Assembly: GCA_963820845.1 (NCBI GenBank)
Contig: CAWGBO010000006.1
Location: 137,838 to 201,837 of the forward strand
DNA length: 64,000 bases
Direction: 5' to 3'
Source of the DNA: an uncultured Actinomycetes bacterium
Lineage (GTDB): Bacteria; Actinomycetota; Thermoleophilia; Gaiellales; Gaiellaceae
A program made the position numbers and the translations under genes. This document shows positions 6,620 to 29,393 of this stretch, one piece after another. The notes below the pieces were generated by a model. The model made no database searches, was not told the origin of the DNA, and saw nothing but the letters and a program-made list of their open reading frames with translations. Position 1 is the stretch's first letter, and the number at the start of each line of letters is the position of its first letter.

Positions 6620-6704
6620 CGGGCGATCATAAGGCTGCGTCCGACAGGCGTCCTAGCCTTCCCGGGGAACGGTTTGGTTCAACCATTAGGGAGGTCTGGA
6701 CCGG

Positions 6705-7394: not shown

Positions 7395-7417
7395 TCTCGC
7401 CGAGGTAGATGCGATGC

Positions 7418-7449
7418 GATGCGGGGCCGGGCCATACCGGCCCCGCATC
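7418..7449. terminator. GC-rich hairpin between convergent genes (putative bidirectional terminator)
   Basis: GATGCGGGGCCGG-gccata-CCGGCCCCGCATC is a 13-bp perfect stem. It sits between the aquaporin stop (7394) and the minus-strand stop (7454). There is no U-tract. Confidence 0.5.
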
Positions 7450-7453
7450 CGGC

Positions 7454-9194: not shown

Positions 9195-9209
9195 GTCGCT
9201 TCCTCGCCG

Positions 9210-10589
9210 CTAGGGCGCGACGCCCGTGGTGGCTGCCGCGATCTCCTCGTCGATCTGCCCCTCGCCCGGTCCCTTCCGCCGTTCGTGCAGCACCTCGATC
9301 GTGATGTACGAGATCACGACCGCGACGATCACGAGCGGGGCGACGGCGATCCCGGCGCTCGACGTCAGGAGGAGGGCGAGCACGACGGACGAGAGCGGGA
9401 GCCGGAGCACCGAGACGGCGCCGATCGCGATCAGCACCGCCACCGCCTGCGTCTCGGCGAACCCTGGCAGGTGCGCCGCGAGCAGCCCCGCCGCCGAGCC
9501 GAGGAACAGCGCGGGGAACGTCGGGCCGCCGCGGAAGCTGCCGAGCGAGATGCTCCACGCGATTCCCTTGAACAGCAGCAGGAGCCAGAGGGTGGACAGC
9601 GCCAGGGTCGGCGCGTCCTTGAACAGCGACCCAAACGCGTCCTGACCGGAGAAGAGGACGGCGTCGACCGGCTGCCCGGTCGTGTGATGGAAGAGGATCG
9701 CTAGGCACGCGACGGCGAGCCCGGCCACGGTCGTGAGCAGGAACGGCCGTGACTTGACGACACGTTGCACCAGCCCTGCGACCTCGACGATCGCGAACAC
9801 CACGAACGGGACTGCGAGCGCGAGCGCGATCGTCCACCCGAAGTCGGCGAAGTCGGGGCCGGGGTACGGCGGCAGCGACAGCGGGGTCAGCGCATAGGCG
9901 CTCGTCGAGAGGCCCGACCAGCTGCCGAGCCCGATGAAGACGAGCGCGCCGATCCCGGAGGCGAGCAGGCCGGGAAGGAGGATCACGGGCAGCATCGCGC
10001 CGCCGATCCCGGCGGCCTCGATCACGATCACGGCGCCGATCACCGGCGAGCCGAAGATCGACGAGATCGCCGCGAAGCTGCCGGCGGCCGCGAGGATCGC
10101 CAGCACCGGCTGCGGCGCGTCCTTGTTGACGAGGCGAATCGCGAAGATCGCGAGCCCCGCGCCGAGCGCGATCAGGGGTGCCTCCGGGCCGAGCACGAGC
10201 CCGAGCCCGAGCGTCGCAATCGCCGCGAGCAGGATCCCGGGGAGCTCGATCGGCTGGGCGGGGCCGCCGCCTGTCTTGAGCCCGTCAGCGGGCTCGTGGC
10301 CGCCGTGGCCCGGCAGCCGCACGATCGCGAACGCGGTCACCAGGCCGGCCAGGGCGAGCACCGGCAGCGACCACCACGACGGAGTGCTGTCGAAGCCGAG
10401 CTCACCCGGGAGCGCGACGAACACCCAGTGCTGCAGCTCGTGCACTCCCTCGAGGAACGCCCACGACGCAATCGAGACGAGCAGCCCGACCGCCGCCGCG
10501 AGGACCAGCAGGGCGCGATAGCGCCTGCTCCGGATCAGCGAGCCGGGATCGACCGGAGGCGCGGCTGGATCGTTCATAGCGACGACCAT
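9210..10589 (-). CDS. ClC-family voltage-gated chloride channel protein
   Basis: 459-aa polytopic protein with ClC-like motifs GPEAPLIALGAG, GSPVIGAV and GGPTFPALFLG. Confidence 0.75.
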   Translation of the reverse strand: MVVAMNDPAAPPVDPGSLIRSRRYRALLVLAAAVGLLVSIASWAFLEGVHELQHWVFVALPGELGFDSTPSWWSLPVLALAGLVTAFAIVRLPGHGGHEPADGLKTGGGPAQPIELPGILLAAIATLGLGLVLGPEAPLIALGAGLAIFAIRLVNKDAPQPVLAILAAAGSFAAISSIFGSPVIGAVIVIEAAGIGGAMLPVILLPGLLASGIGALVFIGLGSWSGLSTSAYALTPLSLPPYPGPDFADFGWTIALALAVPFVVFAIVEVAGLVQRVVKSRPFLLTTVAGLAVACLAILFHHTTGQPVDAVLFSGQDAFGSLFKDAPTLALSTLWLLLLFKGIAWSISLGSFRGGPTFPALFLGSAAGLLAAHLPGFAETQAVAVLIAIGAVSVLRLPLSSVVLALLLTSSAGIAVAPLVIVAVVISYITIEVLHERRKGPGEGQIDEEIAAATTGVAP

Positions 10590-10625
10590 AACCTGCTCCC
10601 CCGGCGCCGCGGCGCTTTCAGGCCT

Positions 10626-11024
10626 CTAGCCGGCGGCGTACTCCTCGTCGGTGACGTGGGCGCCCCAAGTCGCGCTGTTCCCCTCCTCGTCGACCTGCAC
10701 CATCGCGAGGTGCGCCATGAACCGCGTCGCCGTCGCGCCGTGCCAGTGCTCCTCGCCCGGCTCGAAGAAGACGCGGTCGCCCGGGCGGATCACCTCGACC
10801 GGGCCTCCGCGCCGCTGCGCGTGGCCGACGCCTTCGAGGACGAAGATCGTCTGGCCGTTCGGATGCGTGTGCCAGGCGGTGCGTGCGCCGGGCGTGAAGT
10901 GGACCCAGTTAGCCATCAGCCGCGAGGCGCCCGACGGCGCCGCGACCGAGTCGATGTAGACCGCGCCGGTGAACCAGTCAGCCGGTCCCTGCGCGGTGTC
11001 ATTGCTGTTGTGCGTGATCTGCAT
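10626..11024 (-). CDS. cupin-domain protein
   Basis: Cupin motifs: HTHPNGQTIFVLEGVG ... PGDRVFFEPGEEHWHGA. Confidence 0.75.
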   Translation of the reverse strand: MQITHNSNDTAQGPADWFTGAVYIDSVAAPSGASRLMANWVHFTPGARTAWHTHPNGQTIFVLEGVGHAQRRGGPVEVIRPGDRVFFEPGEEHWHGATATRFMAHLAMVQVDEEGNSATWGAHVTDEEYAAG

Positions 11025-11887
11025 CGATCGTCTCCTCTTCGGATTCGAGTGTCGCGGTCCAGCTCGCGAGGAGGTTCAGCGCCTCCTCGGACTTCGACCC
11101 GGCCTCGGCGGTGTAGGCGAACATCGTGAGCCCCGGGTCGCCGACGAGCGTCATGGTCTCGTAGGTCAGCGTCATGTCGCCGACGACCGGGTGACGGAAC
11201 CGCTTGGTGCCGGTGTCGTGGCGGCGCACGTTGTGGGCGGCCCACCGGGTGCGGAACAGCTCGCTCCGGGTCGAGAGCTCGCCGACGAGGTCCGAGAGGC
11301 CGCGGTCGTACGGGTCCCGCCCGGCTTCGGAGCGGAGGATGGAGACCGAGTCGCTCGCGACCTGCTCCCAGTCGAGGTAGAAAGCGGGCGCGCGCGGGTC
11401 GAGGTAGACGAACCGGGCGGTGTTCGCGGGGCGGCGCGGGTCGGCGAACATCTCCGAGTAGAGCGCGTGCCCGAGCGGGTTGGCGGCGAGGATGTCCATG
11501 CGGCCGTTCCGCACGAATGCGGGCGCGGCGGTCATGGCGTCGAGCATCCGCTGCACGCTCGGCCGCACCCGCTGCGGGGCCGGGCGGCGCGGCCGCGCCA
11601 GTCGTCTGCGAGGCGCGGGCGAGGTCGAAGAGGTGGGCCCGCTCCGCGTCGTCCAGCTGGAGCGCGCGGGCGAGCGCCTCGAGCACCGTCTCGGAGACGC
11701 CGCTCAGGTTTCCGCGCTCGAGGCGCGTGTAGTAGTCCACGCTGACCCCGGCCAGGAGCGCGACCTCCTCGCGGCGGAGCCCCGGCACGCGCCGGGTGTT
11801 GCCGAAGGTGCGGAGCCCGGCCTGCTCGGGCGTGAGCTTCGCCCGCCGGGTGGTCAGGAACTCGCGGGTCTCGATTCTCGTGTCCAC
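10999..11887 (-). pseudogene. XRE-family HTH regulator with MmyB-like C-terminal domain, one apparent frameshift near 11570-11600
   Basis: N-terminus in one frame: FLTTRRAKLTPEQAGL...GLRREEVALLAGVSVDYYTRLERG. C-terminal domain in ORF 10999-11568: ILAANPLGHALYSEMF...FRTRWAAHNVRRHDTGTKRFRHPVVGDMTL. Confidence 0.65.
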
Positions 11888-11901
11888 GACGCCGAGAGTA
11901 G

Positions 11902-13542
<1,641 letters not shown>

Positions 13543-13594
13543 TAGCCGAGAGAGCTTGCGAAGCGGGTCGTGGTCCGCGACGGTAGCCACCACG

Positions 13595-14566
13595 ATGGAG
13601 TACACGCGCCTGGGGAATACGGGCCTGAAGGTGAGCCGGCTCGGGCTCGGCTGCATGAGCTACGGCGACCCGACCACGCCGAACGCCCACCCGTGGGCGC
13701 TCAGCGAAGACCTGGCGCAACCCTTCTTCCAGCAGGCCGTCGAGCTCGGCGTGACCTTCTGGGACACCGCGAACGTGTACCAGCTCGGCACCTCCGAGGA
13801 GATCGTCGGCCGCGCGATCAGCCGCTACTCCCGCCGTGAGGAGATCGTGCTCGCGACGAAGGTGCGGGGGTGGATGCACGACGGCCCCGGCGGCGAGGGC
13901 CTCTCGCGCAAGGCGATCCTCGAGCAGGTCGACGCGTCGCTGGCGCGGCTCGGCACGGACTACATCGACCTGTACCAGATCCACCGCTTCGACCCGGAGA
14001 CGCCGGTCGAGGAGACGATGAAGGCACTCCACGACGTGATCAAGGCCGGCAAGGCGCGCTACCTCGGCGCCTCCTCGATGTACGCCTGGCAGTTCGCCAA
14101 GCTCCAGCACGCCGCGGATCTCGGCGGCTGGACCCGGTTCGTGTCGATGCAGAACCAGTACAACCTCCTGCGCCGCCACGACGAGCCGGAGCTGATGGCG
14201 ATGTGCGGCGACATGGGAGTGGGCCTCGTCCCGTACTCGCCGAACGGGAAGGGCCGCCTCGCCCGCCCGGCCGGCGAGCAGAGCAACCGCTCCAGCACCG
14301 ACAAGGTCGTCCAGGCGTTCGACTCGCCCTACGACGAGCCCGTGATCAACGCGGTGCAGGCGCTCGCCGAGTCGCGCGGCGTGAGCATGGCCCAGATCGC
14401 GCTCGCGTGGGTCCTGCGCAACCCGCTCGTCTCGGCGCCGATCATCGGCGCGACCAAGCCGCACCACCTACCGGAGGCGGTCGCCGCGCTCGACCTGGAG
14501 CTGACGGACGACGAGGTGCAGGGGCTCGAGGCGCCCTACCACCAGTACGGCCCTTCCTGGTACTGA
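13595..14566 (+). CDS. aldo-keto reductase (intact)
   Basis: MEYTRLGNTGLKVSRLGLGCMSYG...FWDTANVYQLGTSEEIVG...ATKV...DYIDLYQIHRFD...GASSMYAWQ...IIGATKPHHLPEAV. Confidence 0.85.
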   Translation: MEYTRLGNTGLKVSRLGLGCMSYGDPTTPNAHPWALSEDLAQPFFQQAVELGVTFWDTANVYQLGTSEEIVGRAISRYSRREEIVLATKVRGWMHDGPGGEGLSRKAILEQVDASLARLGTDYIDLYQIHRFDPETPVEETMKALHDVIKAGKARYLGASSMYAWQFAKLQHAADLGGWTRFVSMQNQYNLLRRHDEPELMAMCGDMGVGLVPYSPNGKGRLARPAGEQSNRSSTDKVVQAFDSPYDEPVINAVQALAESRGVSMAQIALAWVLRNPLVSAPIIGATKPHHLPEAVAALDLELTDDEVQGLEAPYHQYGPSWY

Positions 14567-14567
14567 C

Positions 14568-14891
14568 TCAGGGGATCCGAACGTCCCGGTGCTCGGCCGC
14601 GGCGAGCCGCTCTTCCTCGGTCAGCTCGGACTGCCTGACCGGGGTCACGAGCGACCAGTGGCTGCCGACCGGGCAGCGCTGGAATCTCCACCAGGCGAGC
14701 CGAAACGACTTCACCGAGACTCCCGGAACCCAGATCGTCGTGAACAGATGGCCTGCACGGCACCGTACGACCACGTTCCCGGCCACTCCATACCCGCGCC
14801 GCTTGAGCACCACCACCTCGGGAAGCACGCTCGCCGCGGCGATGAGCAACCGACGGGCACGACCGCGCCTGTGAGGAGCGTCACTCTTCAT
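14568..14891 (-). CDS. hypothetical protein (107 aa)
   Basis: From ATG 14891: MKSDAPHRRGRARRLLIAAAS...RCRAGHLFTTIWVPGVSVKSFRLAWWRFQRCPVGSHWSLV. Possible Cys/His ribbon. The upstream part of the tracked ORF looks non-coding. Confidence 0.45.
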   Translation of the reverse strand: MKSDAPHRRGRARRLLIAAASVLPEVVVLKRRGYGVAGNVVVRCRAGHLFTTIWVPGVSVKSFRLAWWRFQRCPVGSHWSLVTPVRQSELTEEERLAAAEHRDVRIP

Positions 14892-15110
14892 GCAACGACG
14901 ATACCTCGCGGCGGGCTTCGTCGCGGCCGCGCCGGCGGTCTCGGCCACATTTGCCGGGGCACGCAACAGCTCACGATCGAAGGAGTCGCGCAGACCCCCG
15001 GCCCGGTCGGGCTGGAGGCATTCGAGACCCAGCTGCCGCCGATCGTCGCCGCCTCGTCGAGCCGCACCGTCTCGGGCTCGATGCCGGCGACGCGAGTGGC
15101 CGGGTGGTTC

Positions 15111-15187
15111 GGGCCGTTTCAGCCGGGCGCCGCCTCGGTAACGAAGAGCTGCTCGTGGAAGTTCGCCAGGGCCGCTACGCACAAGTG
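15111..15187 (+). repeat. 77-bp direct repeat, copy 1 (about 80% identical to 16188-16264)
   Basis: GGGCCGTTTCAGCCGGGCGCCGCCTCGGTAACGAAGAGCTGCTCGTGGAAGTTCGCCAGGGCCG... aligns without gaps to copy 2. Confidence 0.7.
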
Positions 15188-15236
15188 AGCCGGGTGGAAC
15201 CTAGCCGAGGATCGCGTAGTGCTAGCGTGACCAACC

Positions 15237-15572
15237 ATGACTGATCCTGTCTCGTGGCTGCAGATCGAGCAGGGGTGGAACGTCGTCACCTCGGACGGCG
15301 TCATGATCGGCACGGTCGCGCAGGTCGAAGGCGACAAGCAGAGCGACAACTTCGACGGCCTGGCCGTCGAATCGAGAGAGCCCGCACAGCTTCGCTATGT
15401 GCCGGGTGAGCAGGTCGGGGCGATCTATCCCGGCGAGGTGACCCTGAAGATCGCGTCCGCGGAGACAGGCACGCTCGAGCCGTTCCAGACGCCGCCGCCC
15501 GAGACGAAGTGGCTTCCGGGAAAGGCGCCGCTCTCGACCCGGATCTCGAACTGGCTGCACGGAAAGCGCTAG
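15237..15572 (+). CDS. hypothetical protein, PRC-barrel/DUF2171-like
   Basis: MTDPVSWLQIEQGWNVVTSDGVMIGTVAQVEGDKQSDNFDGLAV resembles PRC-barrel-type small proteins. This is a weak call. Confidence 0.45.
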   Translation: MTDPVSWLQIEQGWNVVTSDGVMIGTVAQVEGDKQSDNFDGLAVESREPAQLRYVPGEQVGAIYPGEVTLKIASAETGTLEPFQTPPPETKWLPGKAPLSTRISNWLHGKR

Positions 15573-15633
15573 GGCGCGTTCCCCGGACGTCCGTCCGATC
15601 AACGAACAGACGCCCGGGGTCACGCGCGCCGGT

Positions 15634-16092
15634 CTAGCGGCACTTGGTCTTGAACGAGCTGACGATCGCCGTCAGACGGGGAGTCTTGAGCTGGATCTGT
15701 TGGTAGGCCGTTGTTGCAGCCGACTTGTCGTTCTTCAGCGTCGCGGCTTCGAGGCTGTGGTAGTTGCCGACGAGAGAGTCGAAGCCTGCGCCGGCATTCG
15801 CGACCGCCGACGCGCACGGGCCGGACTGACCGGCCGCCTTCCAGAGAGTCTGCAGCGCGCCGTCGAGAACGTGGGCCTGTGTGTAGAAGGCGGTGTAGCT
15901 CTTCGACAGGCAGGCCTTCGACGTGCACTTCGAGGTAGCCGTATCGATGTTGCCGGTCGCAAGGCCGAGCTTGGCCACCTCGATGCCGACGTTGGCGACA
16001 AGGTTGGGCGGAGGTGTCTTGGCCACAGCCGGCAGCACCGCCGCGAGGGCAGCGATACAGGCAACGGCGAGGAGGGAGATTCGTTTTGTCAT
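15634..16092 (-). CDS. secreted hypothetical protein
   Basis: Signal peptide MTKRISLLAVACIAALAAVLPAVAKT. The mature part is helical with 4 Cys. No family recognised. Confidence 0.55.
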   Translation of the reverse strand: MTKRISLLAVACIAALAAVLPAVAKTPPPNLVANVGIEVAKLGLATGNIDTATSKCTSKACLSKSYTAFYTQAHVLDGALQTLWKAAGQSGPCASAVANAGAGFDSLVGNYHSLEAATLKNDKSAATTAYQQIQLKTPRLTAIVSSFKTKCR

Positions 16093-16187
16093 GGGCTGGT
16101 TATCGGGCCGGCGGCCTTCGGTCTTTAGGTGCAGGGGAGCCGAAGCCGGCGGTGGCGCGCGAGGTTCCAGTTCTTCGCCAGGGCGTC

Positions 16188-16264
16188 GGGCCGTTTCAAC
16201 CGACAGCCACCTCGATGACGAAGAGCTGCGCGTGGAAGTTCACCAGGGCCGGGACTAGAAAGTG
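16188..16264 (+). repeat. 77-bp direct repeat, copy 2
   Basis: GGGCCGTTTCAACCGACAGCCACCTCGATGACGAAGAGCTGCGCGTGGAAGTTCACCAGGGCCG... It lies at the left edge of the more AT-rich segment. Confidence 0.7.
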
Positions 16265-16326
16265 CTCTACGTGATCCTCAGAAGAGCTCGTTCCTACTCG
16301 AGCTAGTTCCGCGTCATCTGTAGCGA

Positions 16327-17376
16327 TTAGCTAGACGAGAGACTGCGGATCGCGTTCGCCCGTTCGGGCTCGCGTTCGAGCCAGCCCTCGATCCGCTCGA
16401 CGATTGATTCGCGCTCATAGTCGTGCAGTTTGGCAAGCTCCCTTTCGCTGTCGGGGCCGAACAGCGGTCCGCGCGCGTAGCTGAACTCGCCGGCGAGCTC
16501 GACCATCGCTGTCACCGCCGGCCCGGCCTGGATTGCGAGGGCAACGCCAACGTCTAGATCCAGCCCTTGGTTTCGCGCCCAAAGCGCGACAGCGCTCCAA
16601 TGCGCGATGTCGAGTTCTGCGTCCAGCTCGGTTTCAGGGTGCAATAGCAGCACGTCCGGCTTGTTCGCGAAACGCGCAAGCAGTTCAGTGAACGCCGAGA
16701 CGAGAGGCAGTATCGATTGCGCGTCCTGAACCGCCTGGGCGAGCTGCTCGGGATGAGCGGCCTGGACTTCGTTCCTGACAGAAATGATGGAGAACTGACC
16801 CAGCACGTCATCCAAAGCGCGCAGAGTCTCGTCGTCGAAGAGGTTGGCCACGATAACGCGGAAGCCAGATGCGGCCATGAGATCCCTCACCCAGCCGTCG
16901 CGTCGTCCGCTCAGGCCATCCACCATGTTCACGAAGGACGTTTCGTCGAAACCGGCCTCGTCAAGGTGCCGCAGCATCGCGCGGCCCGACTTTGTCGTCG
17001 AGAGCGAAGCCCTCATGGCCTCCCGCGACCGCGACTTCGAGATGGCTTTCGTCAAGGCGATTTCCACGCTGTCCAGGTAGGAGACCAGCGCGCGCTTCAC
17101 CGCTTCCGGCTTGATCGGCCATCCGCGTCCGAACAGAATCAGGACTGCGTCGCGCAGGCTGCGCCGTTGCCGCAGCACCTCATCGAGCGCCGCGGCCAGG
17201 TCGACCATCTCGGCGCCGTATCCGCTCTCTGATCCGCCGCCTCCGGGCCAGGTGCGTTCGGGCCTGATGATCTTCGCCTCGCGCCACCTCGCGGCCTGAC
17301 GCGGCGAGACGTCCCGCCCTCTTCGTTGCAGCTCTATTGCGAGATCGATCTCCGCATTACTCGGACTGCGCGGCAT
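16327..17376 (-). CDS. hypothetical all-alpha protein (349 aa), orphan
   Basis: Intact ORF in a visibly less GC-rich segment. No motif recognised (no P-loop, no nuclease signature). The N-terminal 40 aa are basic and could be DNA-binding. Confidence 0.55.
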   Translation of the reverse strand: MPRSPSNAEIDLAIELQRRGRDVSPRQAARWREAKIIRPERTWPGGGGSESGYGAEMVDLAAALDEVLRQRRSLRDAVLILFGRGWPIKPEAVKRALVSYLDSVEIALTKAISKSRSREAMRASLSTTKSGRAMLRHLDEAGFDETSFVNMVDGLSGRRDGWVRDLMAASGFRVIVANLFDDETLRALDDVLGQFSIISVRNEVQAAHPEQLAQAVQDAQSILPLVSAFTELLARFANKPDVLLLHPETELDAELDIAHWSAVALWARNQGLDLDVGVALAIQAGPAVTAMVELAGEFSYARGPLFGPDSERELAKLHDYERESIVERIEGWLEREPERANAIRSLSSS

Positions 17377-17474
17377 CCAGGCAGTCTAGAACAACCCGCG
17401 AGATTCGTCGGATTGGCCAGGGTCGCCGCCGGCCGCTGAAGTTTCGCGAAACGCAAAGAAGGAGGTGCAAGAAG

Positions 17475-17591
17475 ATGCAGTCAAACAACGGTTGGCTTCG
17501 CTTGATCGCCGCGCTTGCGGCGCTCGCGACACTAGCCACCTTCGTTGACGACCTCGGCAACGGCCGCCTGGACTGGGGCTTGCCGGAGTAG
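17475..17591 (+). CDS. 38-aa hydrophobic peptide (candidate small membrane protein)
   Basis: ATG 17475 has AAGGAGG about 9 nt upstream. Product: MQSNNGWLRLIAALAALATLATFVDDLGNGRLDWGLPE. It is divergent from the 349-aa gene, and below the ORF-track cutoff once the start is corrected. Confidence 0.4.
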   Translation: MQSNNGWLRLIAALAALATLATFVDDLGNGRLDWGLPE

Positions 17592-17645
17592 ACGACGGCC
17601 CGGGGTGTGCCGCCGCTGAGCCACCACGGTCGTGTCGGGCGTCTA

Positions 17646-17674
17646 TGGAGGCGGCGGCCGGAATCGAACAGGCG
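17646..17674. repeat. degenerate copy of the ssrA 3'-end att repeat (relic attachment site)
   Basis: TGGAGGCGGCGGccgGAATCGAACaGGCG versus TGGAGGCGGCGGGAATCGAACCCGCG at 18910-18935 and 24498-24523. The differences are a 3-nt insertion and 2 substitutions. Confidence 0.55.
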
Positions 17675-17734
17675 TCACCGGTCCGACGCGACGTCGTAAG
17701 GGATAGCCGGGGGTCAGACCCGGAAGCGGGTCTG

Positions 17735-17756
17735 CCCCCCCCCCCCCCCCCCCCCC
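17735..17756. repeat. C22 homopolymer tract, preceded by a 7-bp-stem hairpin (17715-17734)
   Basis: CAGACCC-ggaagc-GGGTCTG is immediately followed by 22 consecutive C, then GGGTCC. It lies 71 nt upstream of ATG 17827. Confidence 0.9.
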
Positions 17757-17826
17757 GGGTCCACGTTGCACAACCGGACATAAGCGCGGTGGAGCGAGCC
17801 GCGCGGCTCGTACACTTGTCGAGCGG

Positions 17827-18144
17827 ATGCCTGATCAATTCTTGTTTGACTCGAGCGGACAGTGGCTGGCTTTTCGAGTCGGGCGATACATCTTCGATAC
17901 ACAAGGCTCATGGATCGGCTGGCTGCCTTGGAACGACGAGACGGTGGTAGACACGAATGGACAGTATCTCGGCACGATCTTTCCTGGTAATCGGCTCTAC
18001 CGCGTTTGGAACCAGCCCTATCTGGGCTACCCCGGCTACCCCGGCTACCCCGGCTACCCCGGCTACCCCGGCTACCCCGGTTTTGCCGGGTACTCTCCTC
18101 TCCCACTCGGCGCGGAAGACGTAACGCTGTCGGAGGGTTCATGA
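17827..18144 (+). CDS. small beta-repeat protein with C-terminal (GYP)6 tract
   Basis: Three internal repeats: FDSSGQWLAF / FDTQGSWIGW / VDTNGQYLGT. They are reminiscent of '4-fold beta-flower'-type proteins. Then LGYPGYPGYPGYPGYPGYPGFAGY follows. The stop overlaps the next start (ATGA). Confidence 0.6.
   Translation: MPDQFLFDSSGQWLAFRVGRYIFDTQGSWIGWLPWNDETVVDTNGQYLGTIFPGNRLYRVWNQPYLGYPGYPGYPGYPGYPGYPGFAGYSPLPLGAEDVTLSEGS
18025..18078 (+). repeat. perfect 9-bp tandem repeat (GGCTACCCC)x6, in-frame inside the CDS
   Basis: Six identical head-to-tail copies encode GYP repeats. Confidence 0.95.
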
Positions 18145-18801
18145 GCTCGAAATTCGAGCACTTTCCAGCCGAACCGTCCCAGCCAGAAACGCGCCGCGCG
18201 TTCTTGATCATCAGCGGCGCGCACGCTTCGGCTTCGTCGTTTCTTGACGCGTACGACGCTCAGGACCAACCCGAAATCGACTCCGACGTTCGCGAGGACC
18301 TCTTGCGCGCGATGCTGATCTTTTCGGCCGCGGGCGTCGATTCAATGGCCAAGCAGTTGATCCAGGATGCTCTGCCGCAAGTTAATCCAGCTACAGATCG
18401 GCGCCCGCGAGAACCTACGAGCGTTCGTGGAGAGACGTCTATCTCGAGATGAGCGCTCATCTAATCGGCTGCTCGCTACCGCTCTGATCTCGCATGATCC
18501 GCGCGGCGAATTCATTCTTGAGCTAGTCCGCGAGCTGATCGATGGAAGCCTCCAGTCGGTCGAAGAGCTCTCACGACTTGCGTCGTACTTTGATATTCCA
18601 ACGGACGAGCTAATCGCTGATCACCGGTTCCTGACCGAGATCTTCGCGGCGCGGAACCAAATCGCACACGAGCTCGACGTTGATTTCAGCTTGGAGGATG
18701 GTCATCGTCGACGTCGAGATCGCGACACGATGTTCAGGTACGCAACTGAGCTGTTCCGAGTAGCCGACGCCCTCCTGACAGCGGTCGAACAAAGGGTTTA
18801 G
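18141..18801 (+). pseudogene. HEPN-domain protein (Rx4H motif; RiboL-PSP/Abi-like), one apparent frameshift near 18375-18395
   Basis: Frame A (ATG 18141) reads MSSKFEHFPAEP...AGVDSMAKQLIQDALPQ. Frame B continues LIQLQIGARENLRAFVERRL...FLTEIFAARNQIAHELD, where RNQIAH is the HEPN Rx4H motif. It is translationally coupled to the upstream gene. Confidence 0.6.
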
Positions 18802-18878
18802 CTGAACAACCTGCGCTCGTTCGCCGCGACCGACATGCGCGGGCGCGGCTCACTGCGGCTCGGCCCCCACGCGTCCCG

Positions 18879-18904
18879 CCGGAAAGTCCCTTCGGACTTT
18901 CCGG
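18879..18904. terminator. strong hairpin at the islet boundary (putative terminator)
   Basis: CCGGAAAGTCC-cttc-GGACTTTCCGG is an 11-bp perfect stem. It lies 78 nt after the HEPN stop and 4 nt before the att repeat. There is no U-tract. Confidence 0.45.
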
Positions 18905-18908
18905 CGTA

Positions 18909-18935
18909 GTGGAGGCGGCGGGAATCGAACCCGCG
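18909..18935. repeat. distal att repeat: 27-bp perfect copy of the ssrA 3' end
   Basis: GTGGAGGCGGCGGGAATCGAACCCGCG is identical to 24497-24523. Confidence 0.9.
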
Positions 18936-18983
18936 CAAGATTTCAACCGACTCAGCACCAGCGAGCGGGAATGCGGGGTTGGT

Positions 18984-21623
18984 CTATCCGAGCGGTTGGC
19001 GGGCGATGGCGCGTGGTTCGCGTCCGGCGAGTAGCCAACCGCTGACAGTGGCGACGAGGGGGAGTCCGACCACGATGGCGAGTAGTTCGGCGACGGGCGC
19101 CGGGCCGAGCGTGCTGCCGAGGCTGTTGTGCGCCCACGCGATGAGTCCGAGGTAGGCCGCTGTGGTGCCGAGTAGCGCACCGAGGAGTCCGAGGGTGCCG
19201 GCGGTGGCGGCGGCGAGCGTCCGGCGGGTGGTGCCGCTGGCGCCGGCGGCTGCGAGGACGCGCAGGTCGCTTGCGGATTCGCTGCGGATCAGGTCGACGG
19301 TCAGCGCCAGGACGACGAGGGCGAGGATGATGCTCGCCGCGGTCGCCTCGACTCGGATCGTCGCAAAGCTCGGTTTCCCGTTCGAGGTCTCGATGCGCGT
19401 TTCGGCGGCTAGTGCGAGCTGGCGGGCGGCGTTCTTCTGGGCTGGGATGAGCGGGCGGGCCGTCTGAATGAGCCAGCCGTTCGGAACGAGGTGCAAGTGG
19501 AGTGCGTGGACGGCGTGCTCAGTAATGAGGGTGTTTGGGGCCGACGTGCCAGACGGCAGGCTGCCGAAGGTCTGGATCTTTGGCCCCGGGATGCAGCGTG
19601 CCGCCGTGCAGTGGTAGCTCTCGGCGATGAGGTGGCCATCCGGGGTGGCGCGCTGGGAGATCTCGCCCGGGCCGAGTAGATCGAGGTCGGACACCGCTCC
19701 GAGGCCGCGGCGCGAGGTGACGATGTCGGTGTCGGGGTCGACCTGGGCAGGCTTGATTCCGTAGCCGCGCAGAAGCGTCGGTGTGGCGACGTAGAGGGCA
19801 CCCTGATAGTTGTCACCGTCTTTGCGTGCTGCCTCGGCGCGCGTGAGCGTGCCTGTGCTGGTCGCTTGCCATAGCGTGGCGCGTTGGTTGGTGGCGAGTC
19901 CGGCGAGGATGGTCGGCGGAACTGGTCCGAAGCAGCTCGGTGTGCTGGAGAGGCACGGCGTGGGCCGGAGCCGGCCGGCCGAGTCGAGCGCAACGACAAA
20001 CCGGGCACGGAACGACATGGCCAGGGAGGTCACTTGGGCCCGCAGGGCACGCCGCTCGGCGCCGGTCGGCTGGGGCCCGGCGCCGGTGTAGCCGCTTCCC
20101 GGGTCGTGGGGCTCGTAGACGATGAGCTGCTTCGAAGAGAGGTTGGGACCGTCGAACGTGAGCGGACTGGAAGATCTGACGCTGGCCAGGACGCTGGTCG
20201 CCACGGCCAGGAGGACGACGAAGGTGATCGCGGCGAGCGCGGGCCCCGACCGAGCTCGGTAACGACTGAGGTCACGTAGTGCGACCCGCACGGCGACGGG
20301 CGCGCGTCTGCACAGGACGGCCGGGGCACCGACGACAACGGGGGCGAGCAAGAGCGCCCCGAGCACTGTGGCGAAGATGCCGCCTACTGTGGTCCACCCG
20401 CCGGCGAACCGGAGACAGGCGAGCCCGGACACGAGAAGGACGATTCCGGGTACCGCGGAGCGGCGCGATGCTCGCTGAGAGGCGGGGCGCCCGGAGAGGG
20501 CCGCCACGACCGGGACGCGCGCGGCCGCGCGAGCGGGTCGCCAGGAGGCCGCCGTGGCGGTGACAACGGCCAAGGCCATCGCGACGGCGATCGCCCACCA
20601 GGGCAGGTTGGACCAGGCGACGCGGTGTTCGACCGTGCTCTGCAGGCGTGGCGCGTAGCCGATCCACGCGAGGAAGCCGACGGTGGCACCGATGAGCGTC
20701 CCGACGACGCCCACCACAAAGCCGTCGGTGACCATCACGAGTCGGACATGCCGATCGGTGGCGCCGAGTGCGCCGAGCATCCCGAGCGCACGCAGGCGTC
20801 GCTTTGCCGTCGCCGCGAATCCGGTGACCGCCATCAGGCCGATGAGGATCAACCCGAGCACGGCGACTACGAGCACGATCGTCGCAGGGGTGATCCGGTG
20901 CACGATCACCTTGCCCCCGTCGCCTGCCGGGCCACGCCTCTTCGGTGTCGGCCCACCGGCGAAATGGAGCCCCGCGATACGCCCTGCGGTCGCATCGAAC
21001 AGGAGGGTGACCTGGGTGGGGCGGTTGACCTGTCCCGGCGCGACGAGCGCGAACTGGTCGAGCAGGTTCGCGGGATCCTCGACCAGTCCGATGACCCGCC
21101 GCGTGTGTCCACCCAAGCGCCAGAGATCCCCGACCCGGAGATCGAGCTGAGACGCCACGCCGCTCGTCACGGCAACCTCGTCGGGGCCGGCGGGGTAGCG
21201 CCCGGACACCAGCGACAGCTTCGGCCGCCCGTAGCGGCCGAAGGGGTCCTGAGCGCGCAGCTCGGTGCTGCTGACCGAGCCGGCCACGGCGATCGCCTGG
21301 TCTTCGATGACGTCGACTGGACCGAAGCGCCGCTGTGCGGCCGCCATGTCTTGCGCCAGGTGACGATCGCTGCCGGGCAGGGTGAGCAACGCATCAGCGG
21401 TACCGAACGCCGCCACGGTCGCCGTCGACGGCGCGTTGTAGGCGATCGCGGTTGCCATAACGGTCGCCGCGACCGCAATGGCCACCAGCGCGACCACGAG
21501 AATCTGCTGGCGCCACTCGCGGCGGAAAAGCCGCCACGCCCAGCGGACTACGGCGCGGCGGGCCGCGACGCCGCCGGTCACGGCGCGCGCCCGGACCGGA
21601 CGCCCGCGCAGCGCGGTGCTCAC
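18984..21623 (-). CDS. ABC transporter permease, FtsX/MacB-like with two FtsX domains
   Basis: 879-aa intact ORF with two 4-TM blocks separated by large extracytoplasmic regions. It overlaps the ATPase gene by 4 nt. Confidence 0.8.
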   Translation of the reverse strand: MSTALRGRPVRARAVTGGVAARRAVVRWAWRLFRREWRQQILVVALVAIAVAATVMATAIAYNAPSTATVAAFGTADALLTLPGSDRHLAQDMAAAQRRFGPVDVIEDQAIAVAGSVSSTELRAQDPFGRYGRPKLSLVSGRYPAGPDEVAVTSGVASQLDLRVGDLWRLGGHTRRVIGLVEDPANLLDQFALVAPGQVNRPTQVTLLFDATAGRIAGLHFAGGPTPKRRGPAGDGGKVIVHRITPATIVLVVAVLGLILIGLMAVTGFAATAKRRLRALGMLGALGATDRHVRLVMVTDGFVVGVVGTLIGATVGFLAWIGYAPRLQSTVEHRVAWSNLPWWAIAVAMALAVVTATAASWRPARAAARVPVVAALSGRPASQRASRRSAVPGIVLLVSGLACLRFAGGWTTVGGIFATVLGALLLAPVVVGAPAVLCRRAPVAVRVALRDLSRYRARSGPALAAITFVVLLAVATSVLASVRSSSPLTFDGPNLSSKQLIVYEPHDPGSGYTGAGPQPTGAERRALRAQVTSLAMSFRARFVVALDSAGRLRPTPCLSSTPSCFGPVPPTILAGLATNQRATLWQATSTGTLTRAEAARKDGDNYQGALYVATPTLLRGYGIKPAQVDPDTDIVTSRRGLGAVSDLDLLGPGEISQRATPDGHLIAESYHCTAARCIPGPKIQTFGSLPSGTSAPNTLITEHAVHALHLHLVPNGWLIQTARPLIPAQKNAARQLALAAETRIETSNGKPSFATIRVEATAASIILALVVLALTVDLIRSESASDLRVLAAAGASGTTRRTLAAATAGTLGLLGALLGTTAAYLGLIAWAHNSLGSTLGPAPVAELLAIVVGLPLVATVSGWLLAGREPRAIARQPLG

Positions 21624-22345
21624 CCGCTCTGCCCGGGACCCGCGAGCAGCGACTCGGGGCCTGGCGCCGGTGAGGTCTGGTCGACGAGGCGGCCGTCGCG
21701 CAGAAACACCACCCGGTCGGCCCAGGAGGCGAGCTGCGCGTCGTGAGTGACCACGACGGCAGCCACGCCGCGCTCGCAGGCCTCGTGGAGCAGGCGCATC
21801 ACGTCCTCCGCCTTCACCGAGTCGAGTGCGCCGGACGGCTCGTCGGCAAGGAGGAGCCGCCGGTCCCCCACCACCGCGCGGGCGATGGCTACTCGTTGAC
21901 GCTCGCCGCCGGACAGCTCGTCTGGGAACCGGGCTGCGCGGCCGTCCAACCCGAGCCCCTCTAGAGCTCGCAGTGCTGCCTGGCGGGCAGCCTTGCCAGC
22001 GACACCGTCGAGCTCGAGCGGCAAGGCGACGTTCTCGGCCGCGGTCAGCCCCGCAAGCAGGTTAAAGTCCTGGAACACGTAGCCGATTGCGCGGCGCCGC
22101 AGCCTGGCCTTGGCGTTGCGCGACATCCCTGACAGCGCGGCCCCATCAACCAGCACCTCCCCGCTGGTGGCTTCTTCCAAGCTTCCGGCGATCGTCAGCA
22201 GCGTTGTCTTGCCCGAGCCGCTCGGACCCATGACGGCGACCATCTCGCCGGCCTCGACGGAGAGGTCGACACCACTCAAAGCACGCACCTCCGCCGGCCC
22301 CTCGCCGTAGACCTTCGACACCCCGCGGAGCTCCAACATGCTCAT
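21620..22345 (-). CDS. ABC transporter ATP-binding protein (MacB/LolD-type)
   Basis: Walker A GPSGSGKTTLL, signature LSGGERQRVAIARA and Walker B LLLADEPSGALD. Confidence 0.9.
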   Translation of the reverse strand: MSMLELRGVSKVYGEGPAEVRALSGVDLSVEAGEMVAVMGPSGSGKTTLLTIAGSLEEATSGEVLVDGAALSGMSRNAKARLRRRAIGYVFQDFNLLAGLTAAENVALPLELDGVAGKAARQAALRALEGLGLDGRAARFPDELSGGERQRVAIARAVVGDRRLLLADEPSGALDSVKAEDVMRLLHEACERGVAAVVVTHDAQLASWADRVVFLRDGRLVDQTSPAPGPESLLAGPGQSG

Positions 22346-22923
22346 CGGCGGACCCCTACCCCGCGTCGCGGCCGCGGCGGCGGCGCGGAAACGGGGCCGG
22401 GAGCCTCGACGGCGGCGCGCCTGAGGCGGCCCTCGGCGGCGTCCAGCCAGCGGATGACCGCGTCCAGCCGAAACAGCTCTGCGTCGACAACCAAGGCCAG
22501 CCCCAAGTCAAGAGCGGCCTCATCCTCCTTGATCCGCGTCCACCCCTGCATCAGTTCGACGACGTACCGCCGGTGAGCCTGGATGACCGCGTGGACGTCG
22601 ATGCCTGGCACCCGCACCGCCACCAGCACCTTCATCACGAGCTCATCCCGCGGGGGCGTCGCCAGGTCCGGCTGGCTGCGCAGCCAGCCGGCGAGCACCT
22701 CCTCGCCGCCGGCCGTGATCCGAAACCACTTCTGCGGGCCATCCTCACCCGTGCCATCCGACTCGACCAGCCCGTCGCGTTCGAGCCGCTGCAGCGTCGT
22801 GTAGACCTGGCCGATGTTCAGCGGCCACACATCGCCCGTCCTCGCCTCGAACTCCTCGCGCAGCCGCAGCCCGTACTTAGGCCCCTCGCTCAGCAGCGCC
22901 AGCAAGGCATGGGGGACGCTCAT
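22342..22923 (-). CDS. PadR-family transcriptional regulator
   Basis: ALLALLSEGPKYGLRLREEFEARTGDVWPLNIGQVYTTLQRLERDGLV. It is first in the operon with the ABC genes. Confidence 0.85.
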   Translation of the reverse strand: MSVPHALLALLSEGPKYGLRLREEFEARTGDVWPLNIGQVYTTLQRLERDGLVESDGTGEDGPQKWFRITAGGEEVLAGWLRSQPDLATPPRDELVMKVLVAVRVPGIDVHAVIQAHRRYVVELMQGWTRIKEDEAALDLGLALVVDAELFRLDAVIRWLDAAEGRLRRAAVEAPGPVSAPPPRPRRGVGVRR

Positions 22924-22948
22924 GACTCGCGGCCGCCGCGTACCATGC

Positions 22949-22975
22949 GGAGTAGGATACTCAGTATTCTACTCC
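22949..22975. promoter_or_regulatory. 27-bp near-perfect palindrome upstream of padR (candidate operator)
   Basis: GGAGTAGgATACTcAGTATtCTACTCC lies 26 nt upstream of the padR start codon. Confidence 0.45.
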
Positions 22976-23408
22976 AGTCAAGCGGTCGCTCAGATGGAAT
23001 CCGCTTGAACCGAGGCGGCCAGTCAACGGGTGAGAAATCGCGCCTTCGGTCGCGGCCCCGATCGACCGGTGCGTCCAGGGACGAAGCGGCGGCACCCCGT
23101 AGGAGTGGCGCTCCGTCCCTGAGCCGGCCGGACACGGATCCCGCACTGGTATCTCCCGTGGGATTGCTTGGACCGGTAACACCTCGCCGCACCCAACGTG
23201 CAAGCGCTACACGCGCGACGGCGATATCCGTTGGTGGCTTCATGGGCCACGCGGTTGCGCGCGCGGAGCGTCGTCAAGGCACCAGCCGACCCCGGAGGGG
23301 TTGACGACGTGAGCACGGGCGGTATGACCGTGGGGCTGGAGGTCACCGATGGAGGTGCTGTTTCGCCTAGCGCACTGTCGGTCCACGGTCCTACGGTGTG
23401 ACTTGCCG

Positions 23409-24449
23409 ATGGAGCCGATCCGCGACAGTGCTTTCCGTCCCACGCAATTGACGCTCGCGGAGGCGGCCGTGACGATGCGAGCCGCGGTGAAGGACAAGTC
23501 GTACCGAGCAACGCCCGTTGGCCTTCTCGTCGGGCGGTTATCTTCGCTGGTTCCGGAACGAGTGGGGCGCGACACCCGCGACGATCCGCGACTACGAGGC
23601 GATCCTGGCGCGAATGTCGCTCACGCTGGCCGACCGTGACCCGCTGGAGGTGACGTTGGACGACCTGCGCGACGTGATCGACCTGTGGGCTGATCGCGAG
23701 GCGCGCACGCGGGCGAAGGTTACGTCCGTTGTGCGAGCGTTCTGGACGTGGGCTGAAGATGACGACCAAGTGCCGTTCTCTCCGGCGGCAAAGCTGCGTC
23801 GGCCCCGAGCTCCGATGAAGGCCGCACCACTTCCGCGAAATACTGACGCCCGACTGCTCAACGCATCGCCTATCGCCCGCGACCGCGTGGCGCTTCTCTT
23901 CCTGCTCGACCTCGGGCTCCGACGCGCGGAGCTGGCGGGCGTGCAGCCGCGTGACTTTGATCTCGGGCGACGGCAGGTGACTGTCTTTGGCAAGAGCCAG
24001 AAAAGTCGGGTCATCCCGCTCCGCGGCCGAATCGTGCTGGAGATCGAGCGGTATCTCCTGGAGACACTTCCGCACGTTGACCGAACGCCGGAGCCCGATG
24101 GCTTCTTGCTCTACCCCGAAAAGCGCGGCGCTGGTGGACGGATCCTCGCCGCCTATCCGAAGAAGCGGATGAGCGTGCCGACTACCCATCGGTGGTGGTA
24201 CCGGCGGCTCCAGGCGGCCGAGCTTGTCGGCGAGGGGATGACGAGCGGGATGAACATGCACCGCGCGCGACATACGTTCGCGACTGACCTTCGGCGCGTG
24301 GCCGATCTCGGCTCCGCGTCTCAAGCGCTCGTCACAGCCACCTCTCGACCACGGCGCGGATCCACGGCCACTACGACCTGAGCGACCTGGAGCGGGCTAT
24401 GGAGGCATTCGCACGTGCCCGGAGGGATGAAGTAGAGCCGGCCGACTGA
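23409..24449 (+). pseudogene. tyrosine recombinase/phage-type integrase, two apparent frameshifts (near 23530 and 24330)
   Basis: Three frames must be joined. They read MEPIRDSAFRPTQLTLAEAA..., then YLRWFRNEWGATPATIRDYE...LLFLLDLGLRRAELAGV...HRARHTFAT..., then GHSHLSTTARIHGHYDLSDLERAM...*. At 24330 CTCGTCAC reads as CTCGGTCAC with one G missing. Confidence 0.75.
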
Positions 24450-24495
24450 AATCGTTTCAATCGACCGGCTCTAGGAATGGCTCTACTGAGCCGAA

Positions 24496-24856
24496 GGTGG
24501 AGGCGGCGGGAATCGAACCCGCGTCCGCGGACGCACCGACAAAGCGTCTACAAGCGTAGTCCGCACTTGGATCTCGTCCGGCGGCCGGAGTGCGAACGCC
24601 CAACCGACGGACCAGCCATCCTGAAGTCTTGCGCCGCCGGCGATTGGCTCTCCTTTGGCGCGAAGCCCGTTAGTTGACGCCGCTACCCGAACCACGGGCC
24701 GAATCCGGAGCGACGCGCTAGGTAACTAGGTTACGCAGCGAGTGCGAGTTGGTTATCCGCACTTACTTGGTTTCCCGGTGGATTTACGAGGCCGACCGGG
24801 GACCTCGGCTTGCAGCTCTGCCGGAGAACCGACCACGTCGAAACCAGGTCGCCCCC
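24496..24856 (-). ncRNA. ssrA: tmRNA (transfer-messenger RNA)
   Basis: The minus-strand RNA starts GGGGGCGACCTGGTTTCGACG and ends GGACGCGGGTTCGATTCCCGCCGCCTCCACC. It has an Ala-type acceptor with G3:U70 and a T-arm. The tag ORF is GCG GAT AAC CAA CTC GCA CTC GCT GCG TAA (24760-24731). Confidence 0.9.
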
Positions 24857-24883
24857 GTATGTGTTCGACCGTATTGTAGCTGC

Positions 24884-25828
24884 GTGGCCGAGATCCGCCC
24901 CGCCCGCGACGAGGAGCTCGAGCGCTGGCTCGCGATTCGCAACGCCGTTCTCCCGGAGGACGCGATCGCGATCGAGGATCTCCGCTCGTGGATGTCGGCG
25001 ACCGAGCAGGCGCGCCTGCTCGCGCTCGAGGACGGCGAGCCCGTCGCGGCCGGGCTTGCGGTGAGTGACCCGTGGCGGCCGCATCCCGTCGCCGCCCCGC
25101 TCGTCCCCGTCGAGCACCGCGGCCGCGGGCTCGGGTCGGCGCTCCTCGCCGAGCTCTCGCGCTGGGCGACCGCGAACGGCGCAGCGGCGCTCCTCGCGGA
25201 GGTCGAGCTCGGCGACGAGGCGAGCCTCGGCTTCGCCGAGCGGCGCGGCTTCACCGAGATCGGCCGCAACCTGAAGGTCGAGCTCGACCTGCTCGCGCCG
25301 CTGCTGCAGCTCGACCCGCCGGACGGCGTCGAGATCGTCACATGGGCGAAGCGGCCCGACCTCGTCCGCGGGATCTACGAGGTCTACCGCGAGGGCAGCC
25401 CCGACATTCCCGGCCAGGAGGACACCGAGCCCGAGAGCTTCGACGAGTGGCTCGCCCACGACATGTCCGGCTCGGGCGACAGCCCGGAGTGGACGTTCGT
25501 CGCGGTCGCCGGCGACGAGGTGGTCGGCTACTCGAAGTGGTCGCTGACGACCGCGCAGCCCGCGACCGCCCACCACGACCTCACCGCCGTCAAGCGCGCG
25601 TGGCGCGGACGCGGGATCGCGGGCGCGCTCAAGAGCGCGCAGCTCGCCTGGGCGAAGGACAACCGCTACCTGAAGGCCGCCACGAACAACGAGGAGCGGA
25701 ACGCGCCGATCCGGCGGCTCAACGAGCGCTTCGGCTACCGCCCGGCGGGCGGGACCCTGCTGCTGCGCGGGCCGCTCGTCACTCCAGCCGGAAGACCGGG
25801 TGGTCGGCCGGGTCGGGCAGCTGCTTGA
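24884..25828 (+). CDS. double-GNAT acetyltransferase (MshD-like architecture)
   Basis: GTG 24884. There are two GNAT cores: VEHRGRGLGSALLAEL and RAWRGRGIAGALKSAQ. The upstream part of the tracked ORF overlaps ssrA. Confidence 0.65.
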   Translation: MAEIRPARDEELERWLAIRNAVLPEDAIAIEDLRSWMSATEQARLLALEDGEPVAAGLAVSDPWRPHPVAAPLVPVEHRGRGLGSALLAELSRWATANGAAALLAEVELGDEASLGFAERRGFTEIGRNLKVELDLLAPLLQLDPPDGVEIVTWAKRPDLVRGIYEVYREGSPDIPGQEDTEPESFDEWLAHDMSGSGDSPEWTFVAVAGDEVVGYSKWSLTTAQPATAHHDLTAVKRAWRGRGIAGALKSAQLAWAKDNRYLKAATNNEERNAPIRRLNERFGYRPAGGTLLLRGPLVTPAGRPGGRPGRAAA

Positions 25829-26168
25829 AGTAGCGCTCGACCTCGCGGCCGGCCTTGGCGCGGTAGGCGGCGATCACCGGTGGCCGCTCCTCGACCGGAA
25901 GCTCCGTGACGCTGACCGTCTGCGACTCACCCTTGCGCCGGATCTCGGCCGCGCCCGCGGCGCGGAGGTTCTTGACCCAGTCCGACTCGCCGCGCGTCGA
26001 GACGAGGTACCGCGCGCCCTCGTGCTCGACCGGGATCACCGGCACGGACTGCTCGGTGCCGCTCTTGCGGCCACGCACCACGATCGTGACCGTGCCGAAC
26101 GGGTTGAACTTCATCACGAGCGGATTGAAGACCTTCCGCGTGATCGCGCCGGGCTTCAGGTACGCCAT
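25779..26168 (-). CDS. deazaflavin(F420)-dependent nitroreductase-family (Ddn-like) protein
   Basis: From ATG 26168: FNPLVMKFNPFG...VRGRKSGTEQSVPVIPVEHEGARYLVSTRGESDWVKNLRAAG. Confidence 0.65.
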   Translation of the reverse strand: MAYLKPGAITRKVFNPLVMKFNPFGTVTIVVRGRKSGTEQSVPVIPVEHEGARYLVSTRGESDWVKNLRAAGAAEIRRKGESQTVSVTELPVEERPPVIAAYRAKAGREVERYFKQLPDPADHPVFRLE

Positions 26169-26169
26169 C

Positions 26170-27002: not shown

Positions 27003-27006
<4 letters not shown>
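26170..27006 (-). pseudogene. CO-dehydrogenase/xanthine-dehydrogenase family FAD-binding medium subunit (CoxM-like), multiple frameshifts
   Basis: Fragments in at least 4 frames: [14 protein letters not shown]; [20 protein letters not shown]; RHRGTIGGSVAHGDPASDLPACLLALDAE; KFSRRAQDWATVGVAV; SADFRQHLARVLTKRAVEQA*. Confidence 0.7.
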
Positions 27007-29390
<2,384 letters not shown>

Positions 29391-29393
29391 GAC

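Follow-up and report, generated by a model that had tools for sequence, protein, structure and literature searches.

Elements that use tyrosine integrases to enter tRNA or tmRNA genes carry in their attP a copy of the 3' end of the gene, and their integration restores the target gene and displaces its old 3' end outward. As each new layer lands next to ssrA, older repeats come to lie further out, where they decay. Decaying islands in tandem have been known from tmRNA genes since about 2003; such arrays, displaced 3' fragments as island ends, and integrase-less members read as fixed remnants or as cis-mobilizable elements (CIMEs) are all established, the sources being Islander (PMC4383910), the Dehalococcoides ssrA islands (PMC3146451), accretion in the ICESt1 family (cited in PMC3146451) and, reportedly, the work of Williams from 2003. 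The locus investigated here, downstream of ssrA in an uncultured soil bacterium of the Thermoleophilia (Gaiellales), resembles these arrays in that tyrosine-integrase elements enter the ssrA 3' end, the gene is regenerated, a displaced fragment marks the far end, and the array arises from repeated use of the same site. Its core, built of the discriminator, the acceptor 3' strand and the T-arm, belongs to the common T-stem class of attP. In Islander (PMC4383910), each member of an array needs its own integrase as well as its own tDNA fragment. Here, in contrast to the Islander arrays, only the newest layer (islet 1) has an integrase, which is damaged, and the older layers are relics; under this rule islet 1 alone counts as an island.

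In Dehalococcoides, the 3' end of ssrA is repeated several times in direct orientation downstream of the gene, within a high-plasticity region with strain-specific contents, and some of the islands there, having no integration module, were read as fixed remnants or as cis-mobilizable (McMurdie et al. 2011, PMC3146451). [quoted passage not shown] A further parallel is the accretion of ICESt1/ICESt3 and the CIMEs derived from it (Pavlovic et al. 2004, reference 54 in PMC3146451; reviewed in PMC5704250). CIMEs are att-flanked, integrase-less remnants beside a newer element at one site, formed by successive site-specific integration and deletion; their att sites remain functional, and they are mobilisable. 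In our locus the segment 17677–18909 has flanking repeats with no integrase between them, but the outer repeat (copy 3) is disrupted in its core by a 3-nt insertion and two substitutions and the adjacent integrase is a pseudogene, so that it is probably a fossil rather than a mobilisable unit. The finding is real but ordinary; it concerns a hotspot of a well-known kind and changes no concept. For an uncultured soil lineage, it records every stage in the life of ssrA-targeting elements, from a fresh insertion that is losing its integrase, through an older layer of decaying defence-like cargo, to an oldest junction of 5 nt. Since the copy 3 fragment carries an indel, the older layer would be missed by island finders that need exact tDNA fragments and an integrase; such programs would report one island here, and assemblies of relatives break exactly at the att repeat.

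The window, that is, the whole 64-kb stretch of DNA that was analysed, carries a full-length tmRNA gene (ssrA) at 24496–24856 on the minus strand, encoding the tag ADNQLALAA and recognized by ARAGORN as well as by Rfam model RF00023 (182 bits, E 2.9e-73, model positions 1–374). On the plus strand the 3' end of this gene reads G-TGGAGGCGGCGGGAATCGAACCCGCG and spans the discriminator, the acceptor 3' strand, the T-arm and one more G. The exact 26-nt core TGGAGGCGGCGGGAATCGAACCCGCG lies inside it at 24498–24523 (copy 1) and is repeated unchanged on the plus strand at 18910–18935 (copy 2), where the match grows to 27 nt with the preceding G. A sequence-only reading of this DNA had proposed a third, degenerate copy about 1.2 kb past copy 2, the distal att of an integrase islet, differing from the core by a 3-nt insertion and two substitutions. 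This was confirmed, the described changes being exact: copy 3, which lies at 17646–17676 and shares its strand with the two other copies, consists of TGGAGGCGGCGG, the inserted CCG, GAATCGAAC, the substituted AG, and GCGTC. It thus agrees without mismatch with the ssrA 3' end over one block of 12 nt and another of 9 nt, its start lies 1,264 nt from that of copy 2, and the identity extends 2 nt past what had been noted, to a GCGTC that is found in ssrA itself, unlike in copy 2. The number of changes rises with the distance from ssrA, from none in copy 2, through two substitutions and the 3-nt insertion in copy 3, to a junction beside a gene remnant (gene Y, see below) at which 5 nt are left. 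In the terms of Islander, which looks for a displaced tDNA fragment of the same orientation at the far end, copy 2 is such a fragment in exact form, and copy 3 is one in degenerate, still significant form. Rfam models run on the window detected copies 1 and 2 and not copy 3, and folding found no hairpin after copy 3 on the ssrA strand.

How clearly copy 3 stands out from a GC-rich background depends on the scoring. With plain +2/−3 scores it reaches 37, and one of 200 shuffled windows reached 38; this score is not decisive, because the GC-rich portion of the query gains points readily against DNA of 70% GC. With composition-aware local alignment (log-odds, 70% GC) copy 3 scores 27.4–30.6, a value that none of 300 shuffles equalled at any of three query lengths (shuffles: mean 20.3–22.5, sd 1.6–1.8, maximum 25.4–30.2). 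The anchored pattern TGGAGGCGGCGG-N(0-6)-GAATCGAAC gave three matches in the window and none in 100 dinucleotide shuffles. The warning of the earlier reading about the GC-rich background was justified, but the signal is carried by the AT-containing T-loop block GAATCGAAC. The better-than-chance similarity anticipated by that reading is borne out by the composition-aware score and the anchored pattern. A chance resemblance in a GC-rich genome, to which the single higher-scoring window under plain scoring might point, is very improbable given these shuffles, the expected strand of copy 3, its position less than 1.3 kb from copy 2, and the chance-level score of every other site in the window (19.7–20.2 for the next best). 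No further att relic in the 64-kb window was significant by composition-aware alignment. On neither side of 17646–17676 does the DNA significantly resemble the ssrA body, the flank of copy 2 (block F, see below) or the flank of islet 1, and no significant homology beyond the 31 nt links copy 3 to another junction.

Islet 1, which is the youngest layer, occupies 18936–24497 between copies 2 and 1 (5.56 kb, GC 0.694). By Pfam matches it encodes, on the minus strand, an FtsX/MacB-like permease (18984–21623), an ABC ATPase (21620–22345) and a PadR regulator (22342–22923), and on the plus strand a tyrosine integrase (PF00589 and PF02899, 23349–24449) that reads toward ssrA and ends 48 nt short of the core. 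The islet had been described as an integrase islet, and an integrase gene is indeed present, but it is a pseudogene with two frameshifts, at about 23525–23545 and about 24318–24343. A tblastn alignment with the integrase of a relative, L054, has 39% identity and is split over two frames, and a His stands where the L054 enzyme has its catalytic Tyr. Folding showed that islet 1 has given the regenerated ssrA a 19-bp hairpin (z −7.6).

Close relatives (L049–L054) were obtained from a large protein index followed by contig look-ups, and a GNAT query of the GTDB species genomes and JGI metagenomes returned only relatives with 45–66% amino acid identity, with no DNA in common downstream of ssrA. The GNAT gene beside ssrA assigns the lineage to uncultured Thermoleophilia/Gaiellales. 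The right flank of the locus (25.5–40 kb) is syntenic in many relatives at 75–89% nucleotide identity; no DNA left of ssrA is common to the window and distant relatives. Nucleotide identity to the window is about 88% for L050, 94% for L051 and 86% for L052, and L050 keeps synteny on both sides of the locus. Its positions 1–2174 correspond to a CLC channel gene (window 8435–10592), 5733–7352 to genes for a holin and an aldo/keto reductase (12973–14570), 9001–9294 to a small minus-strand gene (14568–14861), 9517–9640 to block F with the att core (18813–18935, 95% identity) and 9615–16354 to ssrA with the right flank (24498–31294). The 26-nt core is part of both of the last two blocks, which marks a clean empty site for 18936–24497 in L050, and F, att and ssrA are contiguous in L051 and L052 as well. 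In place of window 14861–18813, L050 has 223 unrelated nt, with neither gene Y nor an att relic, and it can be taken, by parsimony only, as a deletion derivative; a search for relics there and in L051 reached no more than chance level, with scores of 13 (L050) and 11.7 (L051). The DNA left of F in L051 and L052 is different in each. Thus, the 16.3–18.8 kb segment and islet 1 are both absent from the three closest relatives, in which synteny is kept on one or both sides, and the segment is not ancestral, which speaks in favour of the earlier reading, as this had named an ancestral segment as its refutation. An empty site in the sense of Islander therefore exists for islet 1; for the older layer it is partial, as 16.3–18.8 kb is missing from the relatives but F is kept.

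Block F is a 97-nt non-coding stretch on the minus strand (18813–18909) which forms a conserved ssrA trailer: it lies directly downstream of ssrA at 9517–9614 in L050, 227–320 in L051 and 9519–9614 in L052, and copy 2 with its left flank aligns at 90–95% to the ssrA 3' end and trailer of these genomes. Such conservation is unusually high for non-coding DNA. Because F, att and ssrA are contiguous in all three, copy 2 and F were the end of ssrA and its trailer before islet 1 arrived. On the ssrA strand F folds, 5 nt past the tmRNA end, into a 13-bp hairpin (18879–18904, −42.9 kcal/mol, z −4.1) whose stem shows a compensatory change in L050 (CCTG...CAGG).

Under simple accretion the ancestral trailer is expected beside the most distal repeat. 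F, however, adjoins copy 2 and not the most distal repeat, and it is present in all three close relatives. If it were chromosomal flank of deep ancestry, copy 3 would be an anomaly; otherwise it is the end nearest to ssrA of an older layer that the clade has in common. L052, in which F and cargo lie inside att-bounded DNA, settles this in favour of the second option. The borders previously assigned to a second islet, 17675–18908, hold only in part: 17677–18812 is specific to the window, but the last 97 nt are F and adjoin ssrA in L050, L051 and L052, and an islet with these exact borders was seen in no relative examined. A weak Rfam match to permuted tmRNA at 18860–18934 (minus strand, 26 bits, E 0.044) is probably spurious; it stems from GGGGCCGA, which resembles a tmRNA 5' end and lies about 45 nt after copy 2.

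The closest counterpart of the older layer is found in L052. Leftward from ssrA (9615–9973) this genome has F (9519–9614), a phosphoesterase gene (7848–9431), an att relic (7787–7812) and gene Y (7160–7780). The relic, TGGAGGCGGCGGGAACCCAACCCGCG, has two substitutions and begins six nt past the gene Y stop codon, and the 1.7 kb of cargo between it and F is integrase-less. Elsewhere in the clade, L013 has an 8.3-kb integrase island whose distal att is exact (28/28 nt identity with ssrA through GCGTC), L015 has an islet of 2.3 kb without an integrase and with a 1-nt deletion in its att, and integrases lie beside ssrA in L007 and L054. The description of the locus as a serial-integration hotspot with decayed, integrase-less layers was thus largely right, as att-bounded islands or islets occur in L013, L015 and L052. 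Moreover, the contigs of L012 and L049 begin inside the att core (at positions matching window 24514 and 24511, respectively), breaks that are presumably due to the att repeat. The ssrA fragment at 1–356 of L049 (window 24511–24866) is 98.6% identical to the window, and the L049 flanks are 83–86% identical.

The sequences next to the repeats point to two types of junction. The inner flank CAAGATTYCAAYCG is common to islet 1 and the L052 relic, and blastn aligns the inner flank of that relic, CAAGATTCAATCGGAC, with the distal end of islet 1, CAAGATTTCAACCGAC, at 94% over 35 nt. In copy 3 the identity with ssrA reaches GCGTC, just as in the distal att of L013, and its inner flank, TCACCGGTCCG, agrees with the flank of that L013 att, TCGGCGGTCCG, in 9 of 11 positions at the same offset, with an empirical p of 8e-4 which applies to one comparison and is only suggestive after multiple comparisons. 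On these short stretches, two types of element may lie behind the junctions, and copy 3 may come from an element family other than that of islet 1 and the L052 relic. A flank of the L013 type at copy 3 and a different one at islet 1 and in L052 argue against local duplication of copy 2, and against noise.

We examined the cargo between copy 3 and F in the window. A hairpin with a 13-bp stem (GGGGGTCAGACCCG gaag CGGGTCTGCCCCC) lies with a C22 tract at 17709–17756 on the plus strand; it leads straight into the uninterrupted tract (C22 at 17735–17756), which ends 70 nt upstream of the first gene, and may act as a slippage-prone switch, or may be a recombination scar or an artefact of assembly. 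This gene (17827–18144, plus strand) encodes a 105-aa 4-fold beta-flower (Bflower) protein, matching PF21784 above the gathering score (E 8.2e-7), with a six-fold GYP repeat that derives from 9-nt tandem repeats at 18018–18080. It is followed by a HEPN pseudogene of the RiboL-PSP type (PF18735; 18141–18801, plus strand) with the motif RNQIAH and a frameshift near 18385–18395; an ATGA overlap at 18141–18144 would couple the two genes translationally. The HEPN match (E 2.5e-5, 24.7 bits) is under the gathering score of 28.4, and positions 12–163 of PF18735 are spanned only with the frameshift repaired, the unrepaired sequence giving two overlapping ORFs. A PF21784 domain has been reported from the 'Cernunnos' anti-phage system of Vibrio integron cassettes (bioRxiv 10.1101/2024.07.02.601686), and judging by its domains the beta-flower/HEPN pair may be a dead defence module. 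PADLOC found no match for these two proteins or for ORF A (the product of a gene left of copy 3), NCBIfam gave a single sub-threshold match, for ORF A, and no relatives of the HEPN protein were found in viral contigs. Profile searches found no recombinase in 17677–18909 or 16292–17645. Counterparts of ORF A, a neighbouring 38-aa ORF, the beta-flower gene and HEPN were all missing from L050, L051 and L052.

These results bear on the idea that copy 3 is a usable secondary att, and that 17677–18909 is cis-mobilizable and could be excised, alone or together with islet 1, by an integrase acting in trans. It draws on the proposal made for integrase-less, att-flanked islets in the Dehalococcoides ssrA arrays (PMC3146451) and on the intact 12-nt and 9-nt blocks of copy 3. 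However, the 3-nt insertion between the acceptor and T-loop blocks and the two substitutions alter the core spacing, two frameshifts disrupt the resident integrase, and the cargo genes are themselves decaying. The canonical 26-mer is common among viral contigs, occurring in more than 120 of those in IMG/VR, but the 24-mer of the copy 3 variant has 0 matches in this collection (2.9 million viral contigs), which gives no evidence for a natural attP or tmRNA variant of that form. We therefore regard a functional copy 3 as scarcely credible.

Left of copy 3, the AT-richer segment was said to continue to about 16270, and it does end near 16270–16330: GC is 0.60–0.64 over 16137–18812, as against 0.70 for the window and 0.69 for islet 1. 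The part adjoining copy 3 is, however, not a continuation of the second islet but a separate divergent two-gene cassette (16328–17613) that occurs in unrelated contexts away from ssrA. It consists of ORF A (16327–17376, minus strand, 349 aa) and a 38-aa hydrophobic ORF (17475–17591, plus strand). The same pair is found in L038 (2220–3504; 60% amino acid identity for ORF A, 84% for the small ORF) and in L039 (3097–4320; 56% and 77%), and DNA homology with both is limited to window 16328–17613. The small ORF is thus more conserved (77–84%) than ORF A (56–60%). The neighbours of the cassette are a Mu/Tn7-like transposase set in L038 and a Ser/Thr kinase in L039, remoter ORF A homologues lie among toxin-antitoxin-like genes, and no tmRNA or att was found near the cassette homologues. 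A toxin-antitoxin or small defence module is possible. Family searches gave no match for ORF A or the 38-aa ORF, PDB sequence searches were uninformative (none for ORF A), and an exact-protein look-up returned no record for ORF A or for a 152-aa secreted protein encoded further left.

Copy 3, which had been read as delimiting the second islet, is not the outer boundary either: vestiges of a gene Y/att junction lie further out. Blastn and tblastn comparison with L052 revealed an internally deleted remnant of gene Y at 14918–15198 on the plus strand, with a stop codon at 15186–15188. The GTGGA at 15194–15198 has the same offset from the stop as the L052 att relic, after which homology ends, and it is a possible 5-nt stump of the oldest att. 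A degenerate duplicate of the gene Y 3' end and junction lies at 16137–16291 (plus strand), where the AT-richer segment ends; it aligns to 15059–15217, is 82% identical to L052 7699–7770 and contains, at the expected place of the outermost att, none that is recognisable. The two copies share a 79-nt direct repeat (15109–15187 and 16186–16264, 81% identical) which brackets 1.08 kb with a DUF2171-like gene (15237–15572) and the gene for the 152-aa secreted protein (15634–16092); the distal copy of the repeat is nearer to the L052 orthologue than the proximal one, and L050 has its DUF2171-like gene upstream of the holin gene instead. A reading of 14568–15188 as one gene was rejected by GC3 and the phase of mismatches, as 14568–about 14891 is a minus-strand gene and 14918–15188 (GC3 0.89) is the plus-strand gene Y remnant; with it, the notion that L050 truncates a gene was dropped.

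Taken together, copy 3 is probably the decayed distal junction of an older integration into ssrA, in a stack that is now entirely immobile. An older element would have entered the 3' end of ssrA within the acceptor and T-arm, leaving copy 3 as its distal junction and, as we infer, bringing the cargo that lies between F and copy 3. From ssrA outward, the layers would then be islet 1 with its integrase pseudogene, PadR regulator and ABC exporter; the exact copy 2 followed by the F trailer and its hairpin; the decayed, defence-like cargo with the frameshifted HEPN gene, the beta-flower gene and the C22 tract; copy 3; the separately acquired cassette of ORF A and the 38-aa ORF; and the vestiges of the original chromosomal gene Y/att junction. 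The array appears wholly immobile because its integrase is broken and the core of copy 3 is disrupted. The ORF A cassette separates copy 3 from the chromosomal flank, and no intact version of the copy 3 islet was found in the relatives.

The cargo distal to F is different in every genome compared, being HEPN and beta-flower in the window, a phosphoesterase in L052, another gene in L051 and 223 nt in L050. A single inherited islet thus fails for the four genomes unless later replacements or deletions all broke at the left edge of F. The sequences that join F at this edge differ among all three relatives, and their ends lie within 5 nt of each other; this fits an alternative in which the DNA between F and the gene Y/att junction was swapped as a passenger relic or cassette by homologous or illegitimate recombination in the conserved flanks. 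Copy 3 would then have been imported within a mosaic, for instance as a relic att or attP of a donor ssrA region, and would not mark an integration into this ssrA. The mosaic left of F, with its 79-nt repeat and a DUF2171-like gene placed elsewhere in L050, agrees with this alternative, as does the adjacent ORF A cassette, which moves without a link to ssrA. However, accretion in place accounts more simply for the orientation of the repeats, their gradient of decay and the parallel architecture of L052; in addition, copy 3 has an inner flank that looks like a genuine distal junction as in L013, and searches found no donor locus with this mosaic. We consider such an import unlikely, although it deserves more weight than chance or a usable att. 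A bolder and still less likely proposal is that F and the distal att/gene Y junction act as fixed 'bookends' for repeated exchange of small integrase-less cassettes in related Thermoleophilia. If true, this would constitute an integron-like, recombinase-independent swap site for defence and accessory genes behind ssrA, and it would differ from the classical mode of accretion layer by layer.

Some further observations concern the surroundings of the locus. A tblastx comparison of DNA downstream of ssrA in relatives with the window gave low-score noise in GC-rich DNA and was discarded. In L016, ARAGORN reports a second, permuted 'tmRNA*' at 116–552 over the 3' end of the true tmRNA gene, which is likely a false positive. 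L049 has a methyltransferase gene between ssrA and the GNAT gene, which the window does not have. About 6 kb from the first double-GNAT gene there is a second paralogue (window 30200–30830, about 31300), and in relatives smpB is annotated immediately beside it, as in L049 (7521–7898) and L054 (17398–17862); the ssrA-smpB distance in this lineage is therefore probably only a few kb. On the other side, the aldo/keto reductase gene was rejected as a synteny marker, since only the gene itself aligns (13592–14562) and its contexts differ among distant actinobacteria. Its protein is 84–92% identical across distant actinobacteria, and the gene is 84–86% identical in nucleotides and 86–92% in amino acids to genes of Micromonospora, Actinoplanes, Streptomyces and many metagenomes, and the homology stops at the gene ends. 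The gene lies at 9998–10968 in L047 and L048, with IS elements nearby in L047, and this pattern points to recent horizontal spread or to extreme conservation.
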